Part shown: in pieces, positions 2,655 to 10,852 of the stretch
How the letters are laid out: each line of letters starts with the position of its first letter
How positions within the stretch are numbered: the first letter of the stretch is position 1
NCBI GenBank assembly: GCA_963665235.2
Contig: CAXXLX010000001.1
Span: 1,984,001 to 2,048,000, forward strand
Direction of reading: 5' to 3'
DNA length: 64,000 nucleotides
From: Candidatus Poribacteria bacterium
GTDB taxonomy: Bacteria > Poribacteria > WGA-4E > WGA-3G
Program-made: the position numbers and the translations under genes
Notes under the pieces: model-generated
What the model saw: the letters and a program-made list of their open reading frames with translations, nothing else
Told to the model about the DNA's origin: nothing
Databases searched by the model: none

Positions 2655-3389
2655 GTGAATTTACATATCCAGGCTTTAAAAGAGAAATATTTAAACGGGT
2701 GGGAACGTCAAGCGACGGTAATTTTACTCGCCGCCGCACTGTTGTTGACACTTCATCGGAATTATGCCCGTCCACGTTTTTTTCGACTCCATCTCGCCCA
2801 ATATTTTCAAAACCTCCCGCTTGCAGAGAGCCATCCATATTTCTATTGGTTTTTGACGACCGGGCTCACGTTGTTTCTGATACCGTGCATAGTTGCCAAA
2901 TTTGGAACAGGAAAACGGTTGAAAACCTACGGCATCCAACTCGGAAATAGGAAACTCGGATGGGGCATAGCAGGGGCGGCATGGATTCTGATGATTCCGG
3001 TCGTTATCCTATCAGTCAACGTGTATCCCTCTTTTCTAGCAAAGTACCCACTATCCAAGGCGGTCCCAGAGAGCTGGCAGGTGTTCCTACTCTATCAGCT
3101 CGCCTATGGCGTTTATATGTTTTCGTGGGAATTTTTCTTCCGGGGGTTTATGCTCTTCGGTCTAGAGCCGAAATTCGGAAACTACAGCATCTTAATTCAG
3201 ACGATTCCGTTCGCTGTGATGCACTTTTCCAAACCCTTGCCGGAGGCACTCGGTTCAATCCTTGCCGGGGTATTGCTCGGCGTGCTTGCGTTAGAAACCC
3301 GTTCATTTATCTACGGTGCAGCAATTCACTGGTTCGTGGCAATGACGATGGATATAGTGGCAGTAGTTTACCCACGCCTTTGGGGGTGA
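2655..3389 (+). CDS. CPBP family intramembrane metalloprotease (CAAX/Abi-like)
   Basis: WEFFFRGFML, FAVMH and AAIHW motifs; multiple TM segments. Confidence 0.85.
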   Translation: MNLHIQALKEKYLNGWERQATVILLAAALLLTLHRNYARPRFFRLHLAQYFQNLPLAESHPYFYWFLTTGLTLFLIPCIVAKFGTGKRLKTYGIQLGNRKLGWGIAGAAWILMIPVVILSVNVYPSFLAKYPLSKAVPESWQVFLLYQLAYGVYMFSWEFFFRGFMLFGLEPKFGNYSILIQTIPFAVMHFSKPLPEALGSILAGVLLGVLALETRSFIYGAAIHWFVAMTMDIVAVVYPRLWG

Positions 3390-3554
3390 CCTTTCGTTAC
3401 CGATCCCCTACCTTCCACAAATCGCTGCCCGGTCATCAGTTCGTTAAGCATGGCCTGGAAGAGTTCATCTCTGATTCAACTTATGCGGTACCAACCTCTT
3501 ACGAATGAGGCAAATTGGGCGGAGTCGGGTGATGTCATTAACTTGAGTTCGTTG

Positions 3555-3911
3555 TTAAAGTGGGATGTAAGTAATTTGGTCAATATATTCGTCTTCGCCA
3601 GATGCCCCAGCGATGAGAATCAACTCGTCAATAATTTTTCCCATTGGCACTTCGAGATTAATCGTGAAAATGCCGGGAACATGGTGCCCTGCTGATAGAT
3701 GGTCATCGAGATGTTGAGGCATACTTTCCCGATTGTTTGTTATCAAGCTGAATTGGTTCTGTTCACACCACACTAAGATTTCTGGGTCCAGAGTGCTTCT
3801 CGCTGGTGCCCCTTCATCGCCAACCGCCAAGACCGTTAGTGATGGTTCATGGTTGAGCAATTGCGTACGGTATTCCGGAGAAATATTTTCGTCTATCAAA
3901 TACCGACGCAT
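3555..3911 (-). CDS. DUF5615 family PIN-like toxin
   Basis: YLIDENIS...LDPEILVWC...LITNNRESMPQHL...HVPGIF signature; directly downstream of a DUF433 domain. Confidence 0.85.
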   Translation of the reverse strand: MRRYLIDENISPEYRTQLLNHEPSLTVLAVGDEGAPARSTLDPEILVWCEQNQFSLITNNRESMPQHLDDHLSAGHHVPGIFTINLEVPMGKIIDELILIAGASGEDEYIDQITYIPL

Positions 3912-3919
3912 TTTTATCC

Positions 3920-6900
3920 CTATTCGCTTTTGGTTGGAGATTGTGTTGTGCTAGTTGAGTCGGCATTTGAGTTGTTCGGGTGTGAATTATCAGCTACTGC
4001 TTCCCCTTCCGCTATAAGTTCACGCAAGTGAACAGCCCCGGGCGGTGGATTTTTCTTGTATTCCTCCCGTGCCGTTTGGCAAAATTTTAGATAATCATCT
4101 AAATATGCACCAACTTTTTCCTGATTTTGAAGATAATATAGAAGCGTAGCGTAAACCTGTTCCACTGTGAGTGAATAATAGTAGTGCTCGGCGATTACTT
4201 CTGGCGTTTTGCCATTGTAGATATATTCGTATAGGATAGTTTCAATACCTACCCGCGTTCCCTTGACACGAATATCATTTTCTGCCAAAAACGTAAAGTT
4301 ATCTTCAAGAGGATAGATTTGTTTGAATTCATTGATTCGTCTGAGGATACTGTTTTCGACAGGCAAAAATAGGGTATGCCTAGTTTGAATTAGATTTTCA
4401 AGTTGGCCCAATACCGTGTGGGCATTCCGTCTGTCCGTAAGTCCGGCTAATAAACCTAATGTCAAGAACTCTTTTTGTCTGAAAGAAATTGATTCCTCCC
4501 AAAATTTAAAAAGAAAATCAACCGCTACGGCTAATGCCGAATTTAAATTCATTCGTTCTTCACCTAAGGCAAGCACAAAACTGTTGTATGGCTCAGAGAG
4601 CTTCCAATTTGAACGTTTAGCTACTTCCACTAACAAATCTGCATCAAATTGCGTGCGATAGTAGCGAGAACAAACAAGTTTTATCGTTATCTCATCATAA
4701 TCAGCTTTATCAAGGAGATTTTGCTTAACGCAGTGTTCCAGTAAAACTTGTGTCCACACCCCGTCAATTTTAAAGTTTGTGCCAGCATCACTATTGAGAC
4801 CTATTTTCGCATAATCTCTGAGTCGTCCATCATCCGATAAAAGTAGGTGCCCGGGTTGGCTTGCAAGCAGAACCGTATCAAGGAAATGCTGTTGTAGCAT
4901 GTCATTGAGTTCCCGCCTGCGTAATTGGTTCATCTCTGACCCAACAGTGGCTTGACCAACTTCACAGTTCTCCCTAATCCAGTGAACGATGTTTTTTAGA
5001 AATGCTATTCCCTGCTTCGTTTCCTCAGGGTTGATAATTTGTTTTACGTACCGATTTCCTTTTTTACCAACTGTCGTTCCCTCGCGATTGGACCACATTG
5101 CCTCTCTCTCACTGATAGTACGCTGTAGTTCATCAATAGTCGCTTGGGCAACACATAGTTTTCCGAATGCGCTGACCACAATATCCGCTGCATCTAAACA
5201 GTGTAGAGTGAGTAGGGAAATAATATCTACAACAAGTTTAGGTTTAGAATGGTTAAGTAGGTTAAGGACGCTGCTTCTTTCCTCAATATCGCCAATACTA
5301 CACCTAATCCCTAATTCAGGGTTACCCATGAGGGAACCCCATGTATCTAAACTATTACTACCGACTAAACCTGTAAAACAACCGATTGTTATGTTCTCTT
5401 CCTTGTATAGTTTTTCAATTTGGAGTATGTGTTCGTGATGCCGATTAATCCTGTTAGTGATTGGTTTAAATCTCTCTTTATCATCGATTGCGTCAGAATC
5501 TTCTATTTTAACCATTTCCATACGTGCATCCGTTGGAAACAGATGTTCGTATTTACGAGAACTCTCTTGATAGGCATAAGAGAATTTGCTCTTGATATCA
5601 ATGATTTGGACAGTCTTTTCCTCAATCTTTATCACGGCATTTTTCTCTTTTCCGAGCAATTGTTGAGCAAAAGGATGATTCACATCACGTTCGTTGTGTG
5701 CGATATCTGCGTCATCACGTTCTTCAATGATATACCAATAGTCTTCGTCAGAAATGTTGACTTGGACTGCTGTATCCTTTTGAACTTGAGTAGGACTTAG
5801 CACCTCAGAAACCTCCTTTTCAACTGAAAAGAAGGTGCCGATATATCTAAGGTGGGCATCGGGTTTATCAAAATTCGTTCTTCGCACTTCATACATTATC
5901 TCCAATGCTTTTTCCGGTTGAAATCTCATTTGATGTAATTGGGCGAATTGAACGCATGCTTCCAGAGAAAGATTCTCGAGGAAAGAATAATTCTTGGAAT
6001 CAGGAAATTTTTTTAACACATTATCAATTTCTTCCGCTTTATTAGCTCGAAAAAGAATCATTCCGAGACGGATTCGCATATCATTGTCATTAGGAAATTT
6101 TTTCAAATAGTCCTTGCATACCGCCTCGGCTTTGTTCATATCGCCGATTTCCTCATAAATCACGACCTCCATCACGGAAACGTTTTCAAGTGGACCATAT
6201 TTCTCGCGAAGTTTCTGACAGAGCTCGAGTGCTTTCGCAATTTCGCCAGAATTGTAGTAACTTTGCACTAACAGTCGTGTCAACCGGGAGTTCTGACCTG
6301 TGTCAGCGAGTTTTTCGTAAAGCGTTGCCGCCTCTTTAAATAACTCATGGATGTAGAGCTGGTCAGCTAACATTATAATATCGAGAAATTCTGCACCATC
6401 CTGAACATAGCTGTATGCCTCTTTGAGTAGAGAAACCGCTTCATCGCGTTTTTCATTCGCGCTAAAAATGCAAGCAGCGTCAACAAGATTCGGTATGCTC
6501 CTGGCGGTTAACTTGCGCATCGCTATTGAAATTTGCAGGGCATCATCAAAACGTTTATCAGCAATATAAACTTTAATGAGCAAACGCCTTGCTTCTTCTT
6601 GAAGTTCTGGAGATAAATCTGTCTGCAAAAAATCGTTAAGTTTTGTAATAGACTCATCTAATCGTTCACTCAGTAAGAGGAAATTAGCAAGTATAATTGG
6701 TGCTTCGGGTACTTCCGGGGCGGATTGGATTTTTTCCAAGAGTTCAACAGATTTCTGTGTATTTCCGCATTCAAAAGCTAATAACGCACGATTTTTTATC
6801 AAAATTGGATTTGATTTTTCAATTCCTAAGGCAGTATCAAGGTCTTCCGTTGCTTTTGTCAACTCGCCAAGGTGAAAATGTGCAATTCCTCTGTTAATAA

Positions 6901-8320
6901 GCCAACCTGCTCTATAATTCTTTAATTCTGTATTGGAAACCGTATTCCACGCCTCGGTAAGAAATTCTATTGCCTGTCGTAGTTGTTCCTTTTGTGAATC
7001 ATGAAGTTGACTGGTCCCCACTGCAAGATTGTCTTCTAGTGTTTGCTCAATCAAGATAGTTGCGAAAGCAGCCTTAAAATTAGGAGTATTTCCCTTTTTC
7101 TGCGACACCATGATTTCGCCCCATCTTTTCGCTGCTTCAAAATTCCCGCGTTGCCATGCTAAATCGCTGATGGCGGAAGCAATTTGTGGAGAATCGTGCA
7201 AATCGTCAGGAACTTTAGCAATTACTTCATCGAGTGACTCTTCCTTAGCAGAAATTCCAATAAGAATAACGTAGGCATCCGTATTTGAAGGATTCTTTTC
7301 CAGTGTCTGTTTTACGTAGTCTGCGGCGTACTCTGTTTCTCCCAATAGGAGGTGAGCCAAGGCACGATTAGATAGTGCCCTTTCGTCTTCAGGTTTATAT
7401 TGAAATGCCGTAATCAATAATTTTGCCGCTTTCTTCTCATCGTTTAAGGCAAGCCACGCCGCTGCAATATTGGTTAGAATCCTAAACCTTAGCTCATCCG
7501 AAGCATCTGCCCAAATACGTTCATTTAGAATTTCTAATAACTCAAGAGCAGTCGCAGGTTTATTATTCTCAAGCAATTTTCGGGCGTTGTCTATTTCTGT
7601 GTGATGTTCTTTTCCAACTTCAGTTGCTATTAAATCAGACATATTTACATTGAGTTGAGATTTAATGTCACAAACTGCATCATAAGTTGCCCCCGTTGTT
7701 TGCTTAAGCTCTCTATTATCATCCTTAATTTTTTCGGTGTTATCTTTGATGGCTTGGATGTCCGCGGAAAGACGTTGTGTCACTTCATTTCGCACGTAGT
7801 CAATTTTACGTGACAATTCATTTAGTATCGTGCCGGCATCATCTTGATTCTTTATGTTATTTTGAATATATTCAAAGACAATTTGATTGAATGCTTCCTG
7901 TTTAAACGGCAGTTGTGCATAAAAATCAATAATCACCCTTTCAATGATGGGACGAATTCTTCGTTCAAAATCTTTATCAGTTAATTGATGCTTTGGAACG
8001 ATGATACAATCACGAAAGAGCGTTGTGATTTTTGCGATTTTTCCACTTTCATTTAAGTCTGTGAATTGAACTTCATCAACATCTTTAAGTGAAGCAATAA
8101 CGTTGTCAAACGTAGGATGATGCACTTCAACTGTTTTTGGATCGGTAAGATCGGCAAAGTCAGACGCGCATTGCTTAACGACCTTATCAAAAGACTTTTT
8201 GAAAAGGTCTTCTGCTGTAGTTTTGTAATATTTTTTAATGGCGGGGCCAATACCACCGGCAATAGAAAATCCAGTGCCTACAATGTTATATACTATGAAG
8301 GCTAAATCGAGTATTGTCAT
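3920..8320 (-). CDS. Large TPR + GreA/B-C-terminal-like + PIN protein with C-terminal fused DUF433
   Basis: Many TPR-like helical repeats; HPFAQQLLGKEKNAVI (GreA/B-C-like, ~5580-5780); LVVDIISLLTL...TIDEL...DTVLLA...LLSDDGRLR (PIN, ~4800-5250); DIRVKGTRVGIETIL...TPEVIAEHY..LTVEQVYATLLYY (DUF433, ~4000-4310). Confidence 0.8.
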   Translation of the reverse strand: MTILDLAFIVYNIVGTGFSIAGGIGPAIKKYYKTTAEDLFKKSFDKVVKQCASDFADLTDPKTVEVHHPTFDNVIASLKDVDEVQFTDLNESGKIAKITTLFRDCIIVPKHQLTDKDFERRIRPIIERVIIDFYAQLPFKQEAFNQIVFEYIQNNIKNQDDAGTILNELSRKIDYVRNEVTQRLSADIQAIKDNTEKIKDDNRELKQTTGATYDAVCDIKSQLNVNMSDLIATEVGKEHHTEIDNARKLLENNKPATALELLEILNERIWADASDELRFRILTNIAAAWLALNDEKKAAKLLITAFQYKPEDERALSNRALAHLLLGETEYAADYVKQTLEKNPSNTDAYVILIGISAKEESLDEVIAKVPDDLHDSPQIASAISDLAWQRGNFEAAKRWGEIMVSQKKGNTPNFKAAFATILIEQTLEDNLAVGTSQLHDSQKEQLRQAIEFLTEAWNTVSNTELKNYRAGWLINRGIAHFHLGELTKATEDLDTALGIEKSNPILIKNRALLAFECGNTQKSVELLEKIQSAPEVPEAPIILANFLLLSERLDESITKLNDFLQTDLSPELQEEARRLLIKVYIADKRFDDALQISIAMRKLTARSIPNLVDAACIFSANEKRDEAVSLLKEAYSYVQDGAEFLDIIMLADQLYIHELFKEAATLYEKLADTGQNSRLTRLLVQSYYNSGEIAKALELCQKLREKYGPLENVSVMEVVIYEEIGDMNKAEAVCKDYLKKFPNDNDMRIRLGMILFRANKAEEIDNVLKKFPDSKNYSFLENLSLEACVQFAQLHQMRFQPEKALEIMYEVRRTNFDKPDAHLRYIGTFFSVEKEVSEVLSPTQVQKDTAVQVNISDEDYWYIIEERDDADIAHNERDVNHPFAQQLLGKEKNAVIKIEEKTVQIIDIKSKFSYAYQESSRKYEHLFPTDARMEMVKIEDSDAIDDKERFKPITNRINRHHEHILQIEKLYKEENITIGCFTGLVGSNSLDTWGSLMGNPELGIRCSIGDIEERSSVLNLLNHSKPKLVVDIISLLTLHCLDAADIVVSAFGKLCVAQATIDELQRTISEREAMWSNREGTTVGKKGNRYVKQIINPEETKQGIAFLKNIVHWIRENCEVGQATVGSEMNQLRRRELNDMLQQHFLDTVLLASQPGHLLLSDDGRLRDYAKIGLNSDAGTNFKIDGVWTQVLLEHCVKQNLLDKADYDEITIKLVCSRYYRTQFDADLLVEVAKRSNWKLSEPYNSFVLALGEERMNLNSALAVAVDFLFKFWEESISFRQKEFLTLGLLAGLTDRRNAHTVLGQLENLIQTRHTLFLPVENSILRRINEFKQIYPLEDNFTFLAENDIRVKGTRVGIETILYEYIYNGKTPEVIAEHYYYSLTVEQVYATLLYYLQNQEKVGAYLDDYLKFCQTAREEYKKNPPPGAVHLRELIAEGEAVADNSHPNNSNADSTSTTQSPTKSE

Positions 8321-8426
8321 GGATTTTCATCTCCTATCAGAGGGTTGTTTGATACAAGTCAATATTCAACCAATAGTCTTTTTGAGACTTACCCAATTTT
8401 CTTATCGGCACCTGTGTGCCCACGCC

Positions 8427-8452
8427 GCTGTCAAGGTTCAAACCTTGACAGC
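8427..8452. repeat. Palindromic hairpin GCTGTCAAGGT-TCAA-ACCTTGACAGC
   Basis: 11-bp perfect inverted repeat read directly. Confidence 0.6.
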
Positions 8453-8799
8453 AAAGAAAACTGCGTCCGTCCTACTTTAAATGTGTTGATTTTTTTAGTT
8501 TACATATTAACGTGAGCTTGAGAATAAATATCCGTTTGCTGTAGACACTTTTCATGGCAAAAAAAACGATGTGATTGTAGCACAAACTTTCTAGTTTGTG
8601 TCTTCCGTTTTTGCTAAAAATATCAGGGGACACCGCGGGTGAAACTTTATTAAGTATACCTGAATTTTCGAGGAATATCAAATTTTTTTATAAGAAGCTG
8701 TCTTTTCAATCTTCCATCCTTTCTTCCACCCTTCCATACTTCCATCCTCTTGCCAAAAACTTTACACACCCCCCGAACGAACACCTCCACAAAAATGAC

Positions 8800-8828
8800 T
8801 TGACAGATTTGCAGTTTTCCTATAGAAT
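8800..8828 (+). promoter_or_regulatory. sigma70-type promoter of acs
   Basis: TTGACA-17 bp-TAGAAT; AGGAG RBS before ATG 8909. Confidence 0.6.
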
Positions 8829-8908
8829 GATAATAGGTAAAAAAGAACGCGGACACTGGACCGCCCTTAAAAGCAGAAATCAGCCTTTAATATAGGAGTA
8901 GAGAATAC

Positions 8909-10852
8909 ATGGCTAACAACGTTTTTCCACCGATGGAGACAGACTATCCCATCGAGAAAGCACACGTCAGCAGTCTGGAAGCATATCAAGCACAATATGC
9001 TGAATCAATTCAGGACCCAGAAACGTTCTGGGCAAACATTGCGGAACGGTTGACATGGTTCCAGAAATGGGATACGATTCGAGATTACGATTTTGTCAAC
9101 GGAGAAATTAAATGGTTCGAAGGCGGCACCCTGAATGCATGCTATAACTGCCTCGACCGACACGTGGAAGCTGGACACGGCGATGCAACCGCTATTATCT
9201 GGGAAGGAAATCATCCCGACGAAGATAAGACGTTCAGTTATAGCGAACTCCTCGCTGAAGTCAAAAAGTTTGCCAACGTCTTGAAAACAATAGGTATTGA
9301 GAAAGGCGACCGCGTCTGTATCTATCTACAGATGGTCCCGGAGTTAGCAGTTGCGATGTTAGCCTGCGCGAGGATTGGTGCCGTTCATTCAATCGTCTTT
9401 GGCGCGTTTTCAGCCGAATCCCTCCGAGACCGAATTAACGATTCTGCATGCAAACTGCTCATAACGCAGGACACCGCTGTCCGCGGTTCCCGCAGCGGCA
9501 TCGCTATGAAAGCCAACGCAGACGAAGCCGTTACAGCATGTCCCTCTATTGAAAAGGTCATCGTTGTCCAACGCACCGGCGACGCTGTCGATTTTGACGA
9601 CGCACGCGATATCTGGTGGCACGAAGTGATGGCGACCGCAGACACCGAATGTGAACCCGAAGTCATGAGTGCTGAAGACCCGCTTTTTATCCTATACACC
9701 TCCGGGTCAACAGGAAAACCGAAAGGCGTTTTGCATACCACCGGCGGTTATCTTGTCTACACCTCATACACGCATCAGCAAATCTTCGACTACCACGAAG
9801 ACGACATCTATTGGTGCACCGCGGATATCGGTTGGATTACAGGGCACTCTTACATTATATATGGCCCGCTCGCAAACCGGGCTATCACCGTTATGTTTGA
9901 AGGCGTACCCAACTATCCCGACTACGGACGCTTTTGGCAGGTTGTCGAAAAGCATCGCATTAATCTCTTTTACACCGCGCCTACCGCCCTGCGCGCATTG
10001 ATGAAAGAGGGGGATACCTGGGTAGAAAAATACAACCGCTCCACCCTCAGACTCCTCGGCACTGTCGGCGAACCGATTAAAGAACCGGAATGGCTCTGGT
10101 ATTACAACACAGTTGGCGAAAAACGGTGCCCGATTGTGGATACATGGTGGCAGACCGAAACAGGGGGAATTCTCATAACACCGTTGCCCGCGGCAACCCC
10201 ACTCAAACCCGGCTCCGCTACGTTCCCCTTCTTCGGAATTGAGCCGGTCATACTCGACGAGGCGGGCAACGAAGTAGAAGGCAACCCGGCTACCGGCTAC
10301 CTCTGCATCAAAACAGCGTGGCCCGGCATTATGCGTACTGTCTATGGCGACCACGAAAGGTTTCTTGATACCTATTTCCGACGGTTTCCGGGATATTACA
10401 TGACAGGCGATGGTGTACTACGTGACGAAGATGGCTACTATTGGATTACAGGCCGCGTGGACGATGTCCTCAACGTCTCCGGACACAGGCTCGGCACGGC
10501 TGAAGTTGAAGGAGCTATCGGGCAACATGCTGCTGTCGCTGAAGCCGCCGTCGTCGGATACCCGCACGATATCAAGGGACAGGGAATTTATGCGTACGTC
10601 ACCTTAATGACAGGCGAAACCGCATCCGATGAAGTAGAAACCGGCATCAAACAGGCAGTCCGCCAACAAATTGGTCCTATCGCTACACCTGACAAAATCC
10701 AGTTTACACCCGCTTTGCCGAAAACCCGTTCCGGTAAAATTATGCGCCGCATCCTCCGAAAAATCGCCGAAGGGGACATCTCTGACCTCGGAGATACCTC
10801 TACCCTCGCCGACCCAACGGTTGTCGACGCACTGGTCGAAGGCAGAAAGTGA
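8909..10852 (+). CDS. acs: Acetyl-CoA synthetase
   Basis: [21 protein letters not shown] and [11 protein letters not shown] motifs; 647 aa. Confidence 0.97.

Follow-up and report, generated by a model that had tools for sequence, protein, structure and literature searches.

The question raised by a locus in the genome of a Candidatus Poribacteria bacterium is why a predicted defence protein should end in what appears to be the antitoxin of a toxin-antitoxin (TA) pair. The locus lies in a stretch of 64,000 nucleotides (nt) of contig CAXXLX010000001.1 (positions 1,984,001 to 2,048,000), referred to here as the window, and a reading made from the DNA letters alone (the sequence-only reading) had described it as a single frame of 1466 amino acids (aa) with a helical N-terminus and coiled coil, tetratricopeptide repeats (TPRs), a GreA/B C-terminal-like (GreA/B-C) domain and a PIN domain, running into a DUF433 protein. 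That layout is borne out by Pfam, by profile searches and by AlphaFold2 (AF2) models. The protein resembles the TPR-GreA/B-C-PIN (TGP) conflict system defined by Kaur, Iyer, Burroughs and Aravind (eLife 2021; PMC8195603; PF20698), which the main text of that paper predicts to act on hijacked RNA polymerase (RNAP) with a variable second effector. It is extended at its C-terminus by a DUF433 module, with the gene for a divergent DUF5615 protein directly behind it, and this TGP::DUF433 fusion is real and old.

The TGP-family PIN domain is matched by PF20698 over residues 1030-1172 (E 3.9e-26, 92.4 bits against a cut-off of 27.8), and its acidic residues D1032, D1063, D1148, D1163 and D1164 are all invariant in an alignment of 6 sequences (A2); in another of 18 sequences (A1), D1032 and D1148 are invariant and D1164 is conserved in at least 90%. 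Several Pfam TPR families match N-terminal to the PIN domain, over residues 272-764. The GreA/B-C assignment is weak from NCBIfam, whose GreA models match the single sequence at E 0.003-0.03, but solid at the level of a profile of 20 family sequences, which finds residues 91-146 of E. coli GreA (1grj) in the PDB at E 2.1e-6 and GreB at E 0.37. DUF433 is matched over residues 1351-1396 (28.2 bits against a cut-off of 23.6, model positions 13-56 of 56), and the AF2 model of the N-terminus consists of short helices followed by a single long helix (160-249). The motifs quoted in the sequence-only reading, including the acidic ones of the PIN domain, were all found where it had placed them: HPFAQQLLGKEKN at residues 882-894, VVD ending at 1032, TIDE at 1061-1064, FLDT at 1146-1149, SDD at 1162-1164 and LEDNFTF at 1338-1344. 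The locus is also AT-richer than its surroundings, as had been remarked, with a GC fraction of 0.36-0.43 over 4001-9000 against 0.44-0.55 in the flanks. PADLOC has no family for either the large protein or the DUF5615 protein.

The frame passes from the TGP part into DUF433 without a stop. No in-frame ATG or GTG was found between residues 1300 and 1364, none of the three TTG codons in that interval has a Shine-Dalgarno-like sequence upstream, and a separate internal start for DUF433 is rejected, in agreement with the sequence-only reading. A G>A change at 4293 in public-run contigs turns T1343, seven residues into the DUF433 module, into Met; this is a variable position at which several orthologues also have Met, again with no Shine-Dalgarno sequence upstream. 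The large gene stops with the TAG at 3920-3922 and the next ATG is at 3911, which leaves the spacer of 8 nt that had been reported for the DUF5615 gene.

The same fusion is present in other genomes, where the sequence-only reading had proposed to look for it together with DUF5615. A word-indexed search with residues 1000-1466 returned 284 matches, the top 120 of which, as listed, cover 99-100% at 76-93% identity; 110 of these 120 are at least 1400 aa long, 116 show the core motif of DUF433 within 160 residues of the C-terminus, and the named organisms among the listed full-length relatives are Candidatus Poribacteria metagenome-assembled genomes. A six-frame search of 176 Poribacteria species genomes finds at least 47 with a frame open across the junction, each of them from the family to which the window belongs: 26 with full-length type A, 4 more with type B (a second full-length subfamily, 56-61% identical), 3 more with N-terminally short forms (417-535 aa) and 14 more with a mini form. 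Ratios of nonsynonymous to synonymous substitution (dN/dS; sets of 13 or 12 pairs, the reference being the window against 13 full-length orthologues) are 0.20 for DUF433, 0.23 for the toxin, 0.22 for PIN and 0.55 for the C-terminal tail. A Logan contig of public run X1 spans 4239-4499 with no difference, and no indel is listed within the gene, which answers the suspicion of a lost stop codon at about 4300-4330; X1 is possibly the source sample, so the contig adds little to the comparative evidence. No RNA runs are listed among the 18 public runs. An artefact, be it the loss of a stop codon, a misassembly or a pseudogene recently read through, for which only the absence of an internal start speaks, is thus vanishingly improbable in the face of conserved open frames in at least 47 genomes and more than 100 protein clusters, purifying selection on the DUF433 part, a well-supported fused clade (below) and a public-run contig that crosses the junction unchanged. 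Such an artefact is excluded for practical purposes, and the fusion is not an error.

The join was mapped by an exhaustive phmmer search with residues 1121-1466. All 51 listed distant TGP proteins of at least 1000 aa cease to match at or before query position 218 (about residue 1338 of the window protein), near their own ends, and free-standing DUF433 proteins (105-150 aa) start matching at the same position with their residue ~3, so that M-(K/Q)-L-E-x-Y-F of the free proteins stands opposite Y-P-L-E-x-N-F of the fusion. The DUF433 module aligns with the free-standing proteins over ~100 residues at 38-51% identity, and the alignments show no visible linker or cleavage site between the TGP end and the DUF433 start, which abut directly. 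A split state was found only in two genomes (G142 and G140), where a 1324-aa TGP is followed after 56 nt by a 129-aa DUF433 gene with its own ATG and then by DUF5615. In a quick maximum-likelihood tree of residues 800-1336 (IQ-TREE, without L084, which has an internal stop, and L108, which duplicates part of the window), the TGPs of Poribacteria all group in a single clade (SH-aLRT 100), as do fused types A and B (SH-aLRT 99, 31 rows), and the split pair falls outside the fused clade, in an unresolved group with unfused Poribacterial TGPs. Among related loci gathered with alignment A2, neither DUF433 nor DUF5615 was found by tblastn and hidden Markov models from our own alignments at the 14 unfused Poribacterial TGP loci or at 17 TGP loci of other phyla (Kuenenia, Thermodesulfobacteriota, Nostocales, Chloroflexi, Bacteroidota and methanogens among them), with both of two positive controls recovered and a few loci having less than 400 nt of downstream sequence. 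The simplest history would begin with a TGP alone, behind which a DUF433-DUF5615 pair was captured, and would end with one small deletion that removed stop, spacer and start.

The gene behind the fusion was surveyed at 42 distinct loci, 38 of which have DUF433 contiguous in frame with Cdom, the C-terminal helical region of the TGP part. At the 37 fused loci that could be assessed for the toxin, 35 have a full-length DUF5615 gene, one a truncated gene and one none; in 31 of the 38 fused loci the last sense codon and the toxin start are 11 nt apart, and most have an 8-nt spacer. The DUF5615 match in the window's copy (P0002) spans residues 3-61 at 28.3 bits (cut-off 23.8) and takes in only model positions 2-56 of 110. 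Among 33 toxin sequences D7 and D42 are invariant and E8 is at least 90% conserved. DUF5615 copies elsewhere in the window's genome have a canonical T-x-D-x-D-F as their third acidic motif. In its place type A has TNNRES or TNNRKS and type B has T(N/K)DPNT; each variant keeps one acidic residue, though not at the same position. The AF2 model of the toxin is confident (pLDDT 92.5) and has five beta-alpha units. That the protein is PIN-like is taken from Pfam and from PMC5499597, which assigns COG4634 to the reduced Mut7-C-like PIN group. A PDB sequence search with the toxin found no relative, and one with the C-terminal 346 aa of the large protein found nothing below E 0.9, the top match being a chance one to HMG (E 0.92). 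The sequence-only reading had counted two RNases in the locus: the DUF5615 partner is present, but its status as an RNase is not certain because its third acidic motif is altered to TNNRES.

That DUF433 and DUF5615 form a pair, as had been proposed, is supported by this linkage and by complex prediction, in which the 130-aa DUF433 module and the toxin reach an ipSAE of 0.68 (runs 0.62, 0.68 and 0.77) against 0.00 for the best of three controls. The mark applied is reached by 58 of 80 solved complexes and by 2 of 110 mismatched pairs, counts that hold only roughly here because our own alignments were used. At least 90% of the contacts are common to the runs, and the pLDDT of the partners is at least 86. 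In the predicted interface R20 of the module, which is R1356 of the large protein and the invariant Arg of KGTRVGIE, contacts D7, E8 and N9 of the toxin, and the interface also takes in toxin residues 59-63, the altered motif. Placed in this way in the acidic pocket, Arg1356 would look like the plug of an antitoxin that blocks an active site. At one locus (L007, genome G120) a type-A TGP::DUF433 protein that shares ~83% identity with the window's has a type-B-like toxin as its partner (69% identical, motif VTKDPNT), which suggests an exchange of toxins between the subfamilies. A pattern scan of viral contigs for phage-borne mimics gave 52 pattern matches for the DUF433 alignment and 4 for the toxin alignment, none of them confirmed.

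Derivative forms of the protein show which parts are kept. The mini form (475-481 aa) is made up of residues 1-211, a 27-residue relic (987-1013) and residues 1225-1466, a composition from which two in-frame deletions are deduced that removed TPR, GreA/B-C and PIN and left the N-domain, coiled coil, relic, Cdom and DUF433, with the toxin behind, between hsdM and hsdS. Its junctions are identical in the 5 copies examined, each with the toxin behind it, and the same joints occur in public-run contigs. Six-frame search of the 176 genomes finds it in 16 (for instance L044-L048, with L046:2192-3625:-, and G152, G164, G162, G137 and G159). Of the 120 short proteins listed as homologous to the N-domain, 81 are mini-sized, every one with the DUF433 core motif; the mini protein has no Pfam match. 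Within minis, dN/dS from 10 non-independent pairs is 0.27 for the N-domain and 0.25 for DUF433. Short forms of 532-535 aa (L028-L030 and L086, for instance L029:1477-3075:-) begin after GreA/B-C and consist of PIN, Cdom and DUF433; the toxin gene comes next, and they are preceded by an Eco57I-like methylase gene of ~1000 aa. Whether they have lost TPR-Gre-PIN, like the minis, or the N-terminal two-thirds, like the short forms, all of these derivatives retain an open frame into DUF433 and the toxin. Since forms without TPR, Gre and PIN still keep N-domain, DUF433 and toxin, the conserved core would appear to be the tether and not RNAP sensing.

Further observations concern the ends of the protein and its decay. 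At one locus (L051; G174:C1:3599500-3605500) a mini is split exactly between Cdom and DUF433 by ~1.2 kb with an integrase- or transposase-like open reading frame, and the toxin is cut down to residues 2-34, both partners thus having decayed. The N-domain is conserved in Poribacterial TGPs only; Foldseek against the PDB gave no match at E<=1e-3, and no Pfam family was consistent across 37 members. Its identification with the NACHT N-terminal helical domain NNH2, an Atlas lead (0.92, 163 shared features), was not backed by Pfam scans of those 37 members, which gave coiled-coil noise. At the other end, the motif (S/T)TTQSP(S/T)K(N/S)E that closes the tail (3923-3950, alignment A3) is common to type A, type B, mini and short forms; a degron and a modification site are possibilities.

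The sequence-only reading did not extend to the setting in which the family is normally found, which is inside restriction-modification (R-M) operons. In relatives with enough flank the cassette stands on one strand in the order hsdM-TGP::DUF433-DUF5615-hsdS-hsdR of a type I R-M system. A whole or partial hsdM lies directly upstream in 14 of the 15 type-A loci that have upstream flank, and hsdS, hsdR or both lie downstream in 11 of 18 type-A loci, the R-M genes having been confirmed with Pfam; type B, short and split forms stand instead downstream of an Eco57I-like methylase gene of ~830-1000 aa. The R-M genes around the cassette are eroded to varying extent among loci. The window's gene is not inside an hsd operon: its flanks are housekeeping genes (for acetyl-CoA synthetase, a CAAX-protease-like protein and a VTT/DedA protein), and a 47-nt relic of hsdS is all that is left. 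With the R-M genes gone and relics left, the window copy is read as an orphaned cassette from a decayed R-M island. At four loci (L006, L017, L018 and L020) the toxin gene is followed immediately by a fragment that encodes the C-terminal ~60 aa of HsdM, which hints at rearrangement or duplication at the cassette borders. An orthologous R-M operon (L053:10519-11913:+) has a gene for a HicB-like antitoxin-DUF6575 fusion between hsdS and hsdR.

The TGP protein is not the only one in this genome to end in DUF433. Outside the window, a 475-aa HsdS (Methylase_S; G000:C1:2796172-2797909, which is L098:1465-3238, minus strand) ends in a canonical DUF433 (76 bits), and its gene overlaps the canonical DUF5615 gene behind it by 20 nt. 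Both domains are present in 89 of its 92 homologues, the named ones being Poribacteria. The TA subfamilies differ between the HsdS and TGP loci, and HsdS::DUF433 is therefore seen as an independent fusion.

Each part of this arrangement has known counterparts. The window protein has the TPR array, the GreA/B-C domain, the dedicated PIN domain and the C-terminal region of TGP proteins, all conserved, and a lineage-specific N-terminal domain in the place of the variable effector or of an effector-associated domain (EAD) such as the adaptor EAD10; it differs in that this N-domain matches no named effector family tested, in its extension by DUF433, and in its obligate DUF5615 neighbour and usual place inside R-M operons. 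TGP genes are described in the main text of PMC8195603 as mostly standalone with few conserved neighbours, whereas here DUF5615 follows 35 of 37 assessable fused loci and hsdM precedes 14 of 15 type-A loci. Pairs of COG2442 (DUF433) with a PIN protein were predicted to be TA systems by Makarova et al. 2009 (PMC2701414), and the VapBC10 pair of Synechocystis is presented as an experimentally shown one in the text of PMC3834315. The window shares with them an upstream antitoxin, a downstream toxin and a tiny spacer, with both domains above their Pfam cut-offs and a predicted complex that puts the antitoxin on the acidic site of the toxin; unlike them, its antitoxin is the C-terminal domain of a 1466-aa protein and not a small labile protein, its partners are divergent (28 bits, where canonical pairs in this genome score 75-90) and the motif of its toxin has changed. 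Matelska et al. 2017 (PMC5499597, section 17) described PIN-type TA modules associated with type I R-M operons, such as DUF433-PIN_10 with HsdM/HsdS in Belliella baltica, as separate genes in arrangements that, by their account, differ between close species, with a proposed role in stabilising defence islands. Here too the DUF433/PIN-like pair lies between or beside hsdM, hsdS and hsdR, but a defence protein carries the antitoxin in its own chain (TGP in one case, HsdS in another), and two genera of Poribacteria have kept the arrangement. The type I R-M locus EcoprrI encodes the latent anticodon nuclease PrrC, which the R-M complex keeps in check by non-covalent contacts until a phage peptide triggers it. 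The present family would have in common with it an RNase that sits within an hsd operon and is silenced by a defence protein, as a second-line suicide response; the difference is that the inhibitor domain is here joined covalently to a different defence protein. TGP proteins (PMC8195603), DUF433-PIN TA pairs (PMC2701414, PMC3834315) and the link of PIN-type TA modules to type I R-M (PMC5499597) are thus already in print. As the sequence-only reading had surmised, no description of a TGP::DUF433 fusion with a dedicated toxin was found in the literature searched, nor one of the mini derivative or of an HsdS::DUF433 fusion, and the main text of PMC8195603, supplements aside, has no mention of DUF433.

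The answer we favour, at slightly better than an even chance, is that the locus is a tethered TA pair which locks the defence locus in place by addiction and acts as a fail-safe. On this reading the antitoxin of a DUF433/DUF5615 type II pair has been welded end to start onto the C-terminus of a Poribacteria-specific TGP derivative, with the toxin gene kept 8 nt behind. The fused module is predicted to bind the DUF5615 protein and to plug its acidic pocket with the invariant R1356, so that the toxin would stay inactive only for as long as the cell makes the large protein and keeps it whole; a harmful toxin held by its tether would depend for its activity on the supply and integrity of that protein. 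Loss or truncation of the locus upstream of DUF433 would free the toxin, which may stabilise the locus in decaying R-M islands, and whatever stops or destroys the large protein (host shut-off, proteolysis or anti-defence factors, for instance) would set the toxin free as a backup to the TGP PIN domain and the R-M system beside it. The R-M genes next to the cassette have been deleted in the window's genome, which leaves it on its own. This tethered TA pair is favoured because decayed derivatives keep the open frame into DUF433 and the toxin, because R-M genes erode around a persistent cassette, and because a second defence protein, HsdS, bears the same kind of tether. Several points weigh against it. 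One genome (L009/L064) has an intact fusion with no toxin. The toxin is divergent, its TNNRES having D to N and D to E changes relative to the canonical motif, and a Foldseek search with its model gave no match at E<=1e-3, the top weak ones being CheY-like receiver domains with no PIN among them; with no PIN match and an altered motif, its nuclease activity is presumptive. A complex prediction that passes speaks for compatibility, not binding, and may reflect memory of related TA complexes. Purifying selection on the N-domain in minis is not explained by pure addiction.

The interpretation offered by the sequence-only reading, which is partly supported overall, was that of a signal-triggered guard: the TPRs, or GreA/B-C at RNAP, would sense an invader, and a conformational change or cleavage would release DUF5615, giving two RNases in sequence. 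The prediction that TGPs act on hijacked RNAP with a variable second effector fits such a guard, as do the intact and conserved GreA/B-C and PIN parts, the predicted binding of toxin to DUF433 and an R-M embedding reminiscent of PrrC in EcoprrI. We nevertheless consider it unlikely, since a trigger of any kind has no support of its own, minis that lack TPR, Gre and PIN keep N-domain, DUF433 and toxin under purifying selection and hence a core that needs no sensor, the HsdS::DUF433 fusions have no such sensor either, and the DUF433 start abuts the normal TGP end without a visible linker or cleavage site. A less probable alternative still, and the chief sceptical one, is that DUF433 is mainly a nucleic-acid-binding winged helix, serving autoregulation or target binding, and the DUF5615 protein a catalytically weakened accessory and not a toxin. 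The altered third acidic motif and the fold search without a PIN match would agree with this, but D7, E8 and D42 are retained and the altered motif has one acidic residue in every case, few parts are as strongly conserved as the toxin, the predicted interface sets an invariant Arg in the acidic pocket in the manner of an inhibitor, and a decay that strikes the toxin first (L028, L051 and L009) fits a TA pair. Beyond the tethered TA pair of the window lies a broader proposal, possible but on balance doubtful, that Poribacteria use DUF433/DUF5615 pairs as a plug-in 'dead-man's switch' welded to the C-termini of different defence proteins (TGP, HsdS), in which attack on the defence protein or its loss would release an RNase, and of which the 477-aa mini would be a functional minimal version, with the N-domain as true partner or effector.

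Table 1. Coordinates of the TGP::DUF433-DUF5615 locus and its borders in the window.
Feature	Position	Strand	Basis or remark
TGP::DUF433 fusion gene (P0001)	3920..8320	-	1466 aa, one uninterrupted frame
N-terminal all-helical domain, residues 1-155, beginning with a hydrophobic Gly-rich stretch	7856..8320	-	AF2 pLDDT 72
Long helix / coiled coil, residues ~156-249	7574..7855	-	AF2 model
TPR array region, residues ~250-800	5921..7573	-	Pfam
GreA/B C-terminal-like domain, residues ~845-910	5591..5788	-	profile A6 against PDB; NCBIfam
TGP-family PIN domain PF20698, residues 1030-1172	4805..5233	-	Pfam; D1032, D1063, D1148, D1163/D1164 conserved
C-terminal helical region 'Cdom', residues 1224-1336	4313..4651	-	normal end of unfused TGP; retained in mini form
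DUF433 (COG2442) putative antitoxin module, residues 1337-1436	4013..4312	-	invariant loop KGTRVGIE at 1353-1360
Low-complexity tail, residues 1437-1466	3923..4012	-	ends in recurring ...TTQSP(S/T)K(N/S)E; relaxed selection
8-nt spacer, TGP::DUF433 stop to toxin ATG	3912..3919	-	
Divergent DUF5615 putative toxin gene (P0002), COG4634 / Mut7-C-like PIN group	3555..3911	-	118 aa
Relic of toxin-to-hsdS spacer	3465..3554	-	blastn against orthologous loci
Relic of last ~47 nt (16 aa) of hsdS	3423..3469	-	blastn; rest of hsdS and all of hsdR absent
Upstream spacer homologous to hsdM-to-TGP spacer of orthologous loci (62-162 nt)	8321..8482	-	blastn; no hsdM

The spacer upstream of the fusion gene has features of its own (Table 1 gives the surrounding coordinates). 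A dispersed repeat of ~120-145 nt at 8504-8651 has at least 44 further matches in its own genome at 78-94% identity (40 of 208 candidates scored), a metagenome word depth ~10 times that of its surroundings and no Rfam match, and a perfect 11-bp inverted repeat at 8428-8451, a hairpin with a 2-nt loop, is single-copy in the same genome. Rfam gave no match at E<=0.1 anywhere in 3000-9200, and promoter-like sites occur at chance level (17 against 13.2 +/- 3.8).

The locus brings together a defence protein predicted to be directed at RNAP, a type II TA pair and R-M operons, all three of them known, in a combination that was not found described. A covalently tethered antitoxin makes two ideas testable, namely that TA modules stabilise defence islands and that a toxin can serve as a monitor of whether a defence protein is intact. 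The TGP family, itself still unvalidated, gains a tractable read-out in the release of the toxin. Furthermore, the finding points to a very common, unannotated family of 477-aa proteins in sponge symbionts.

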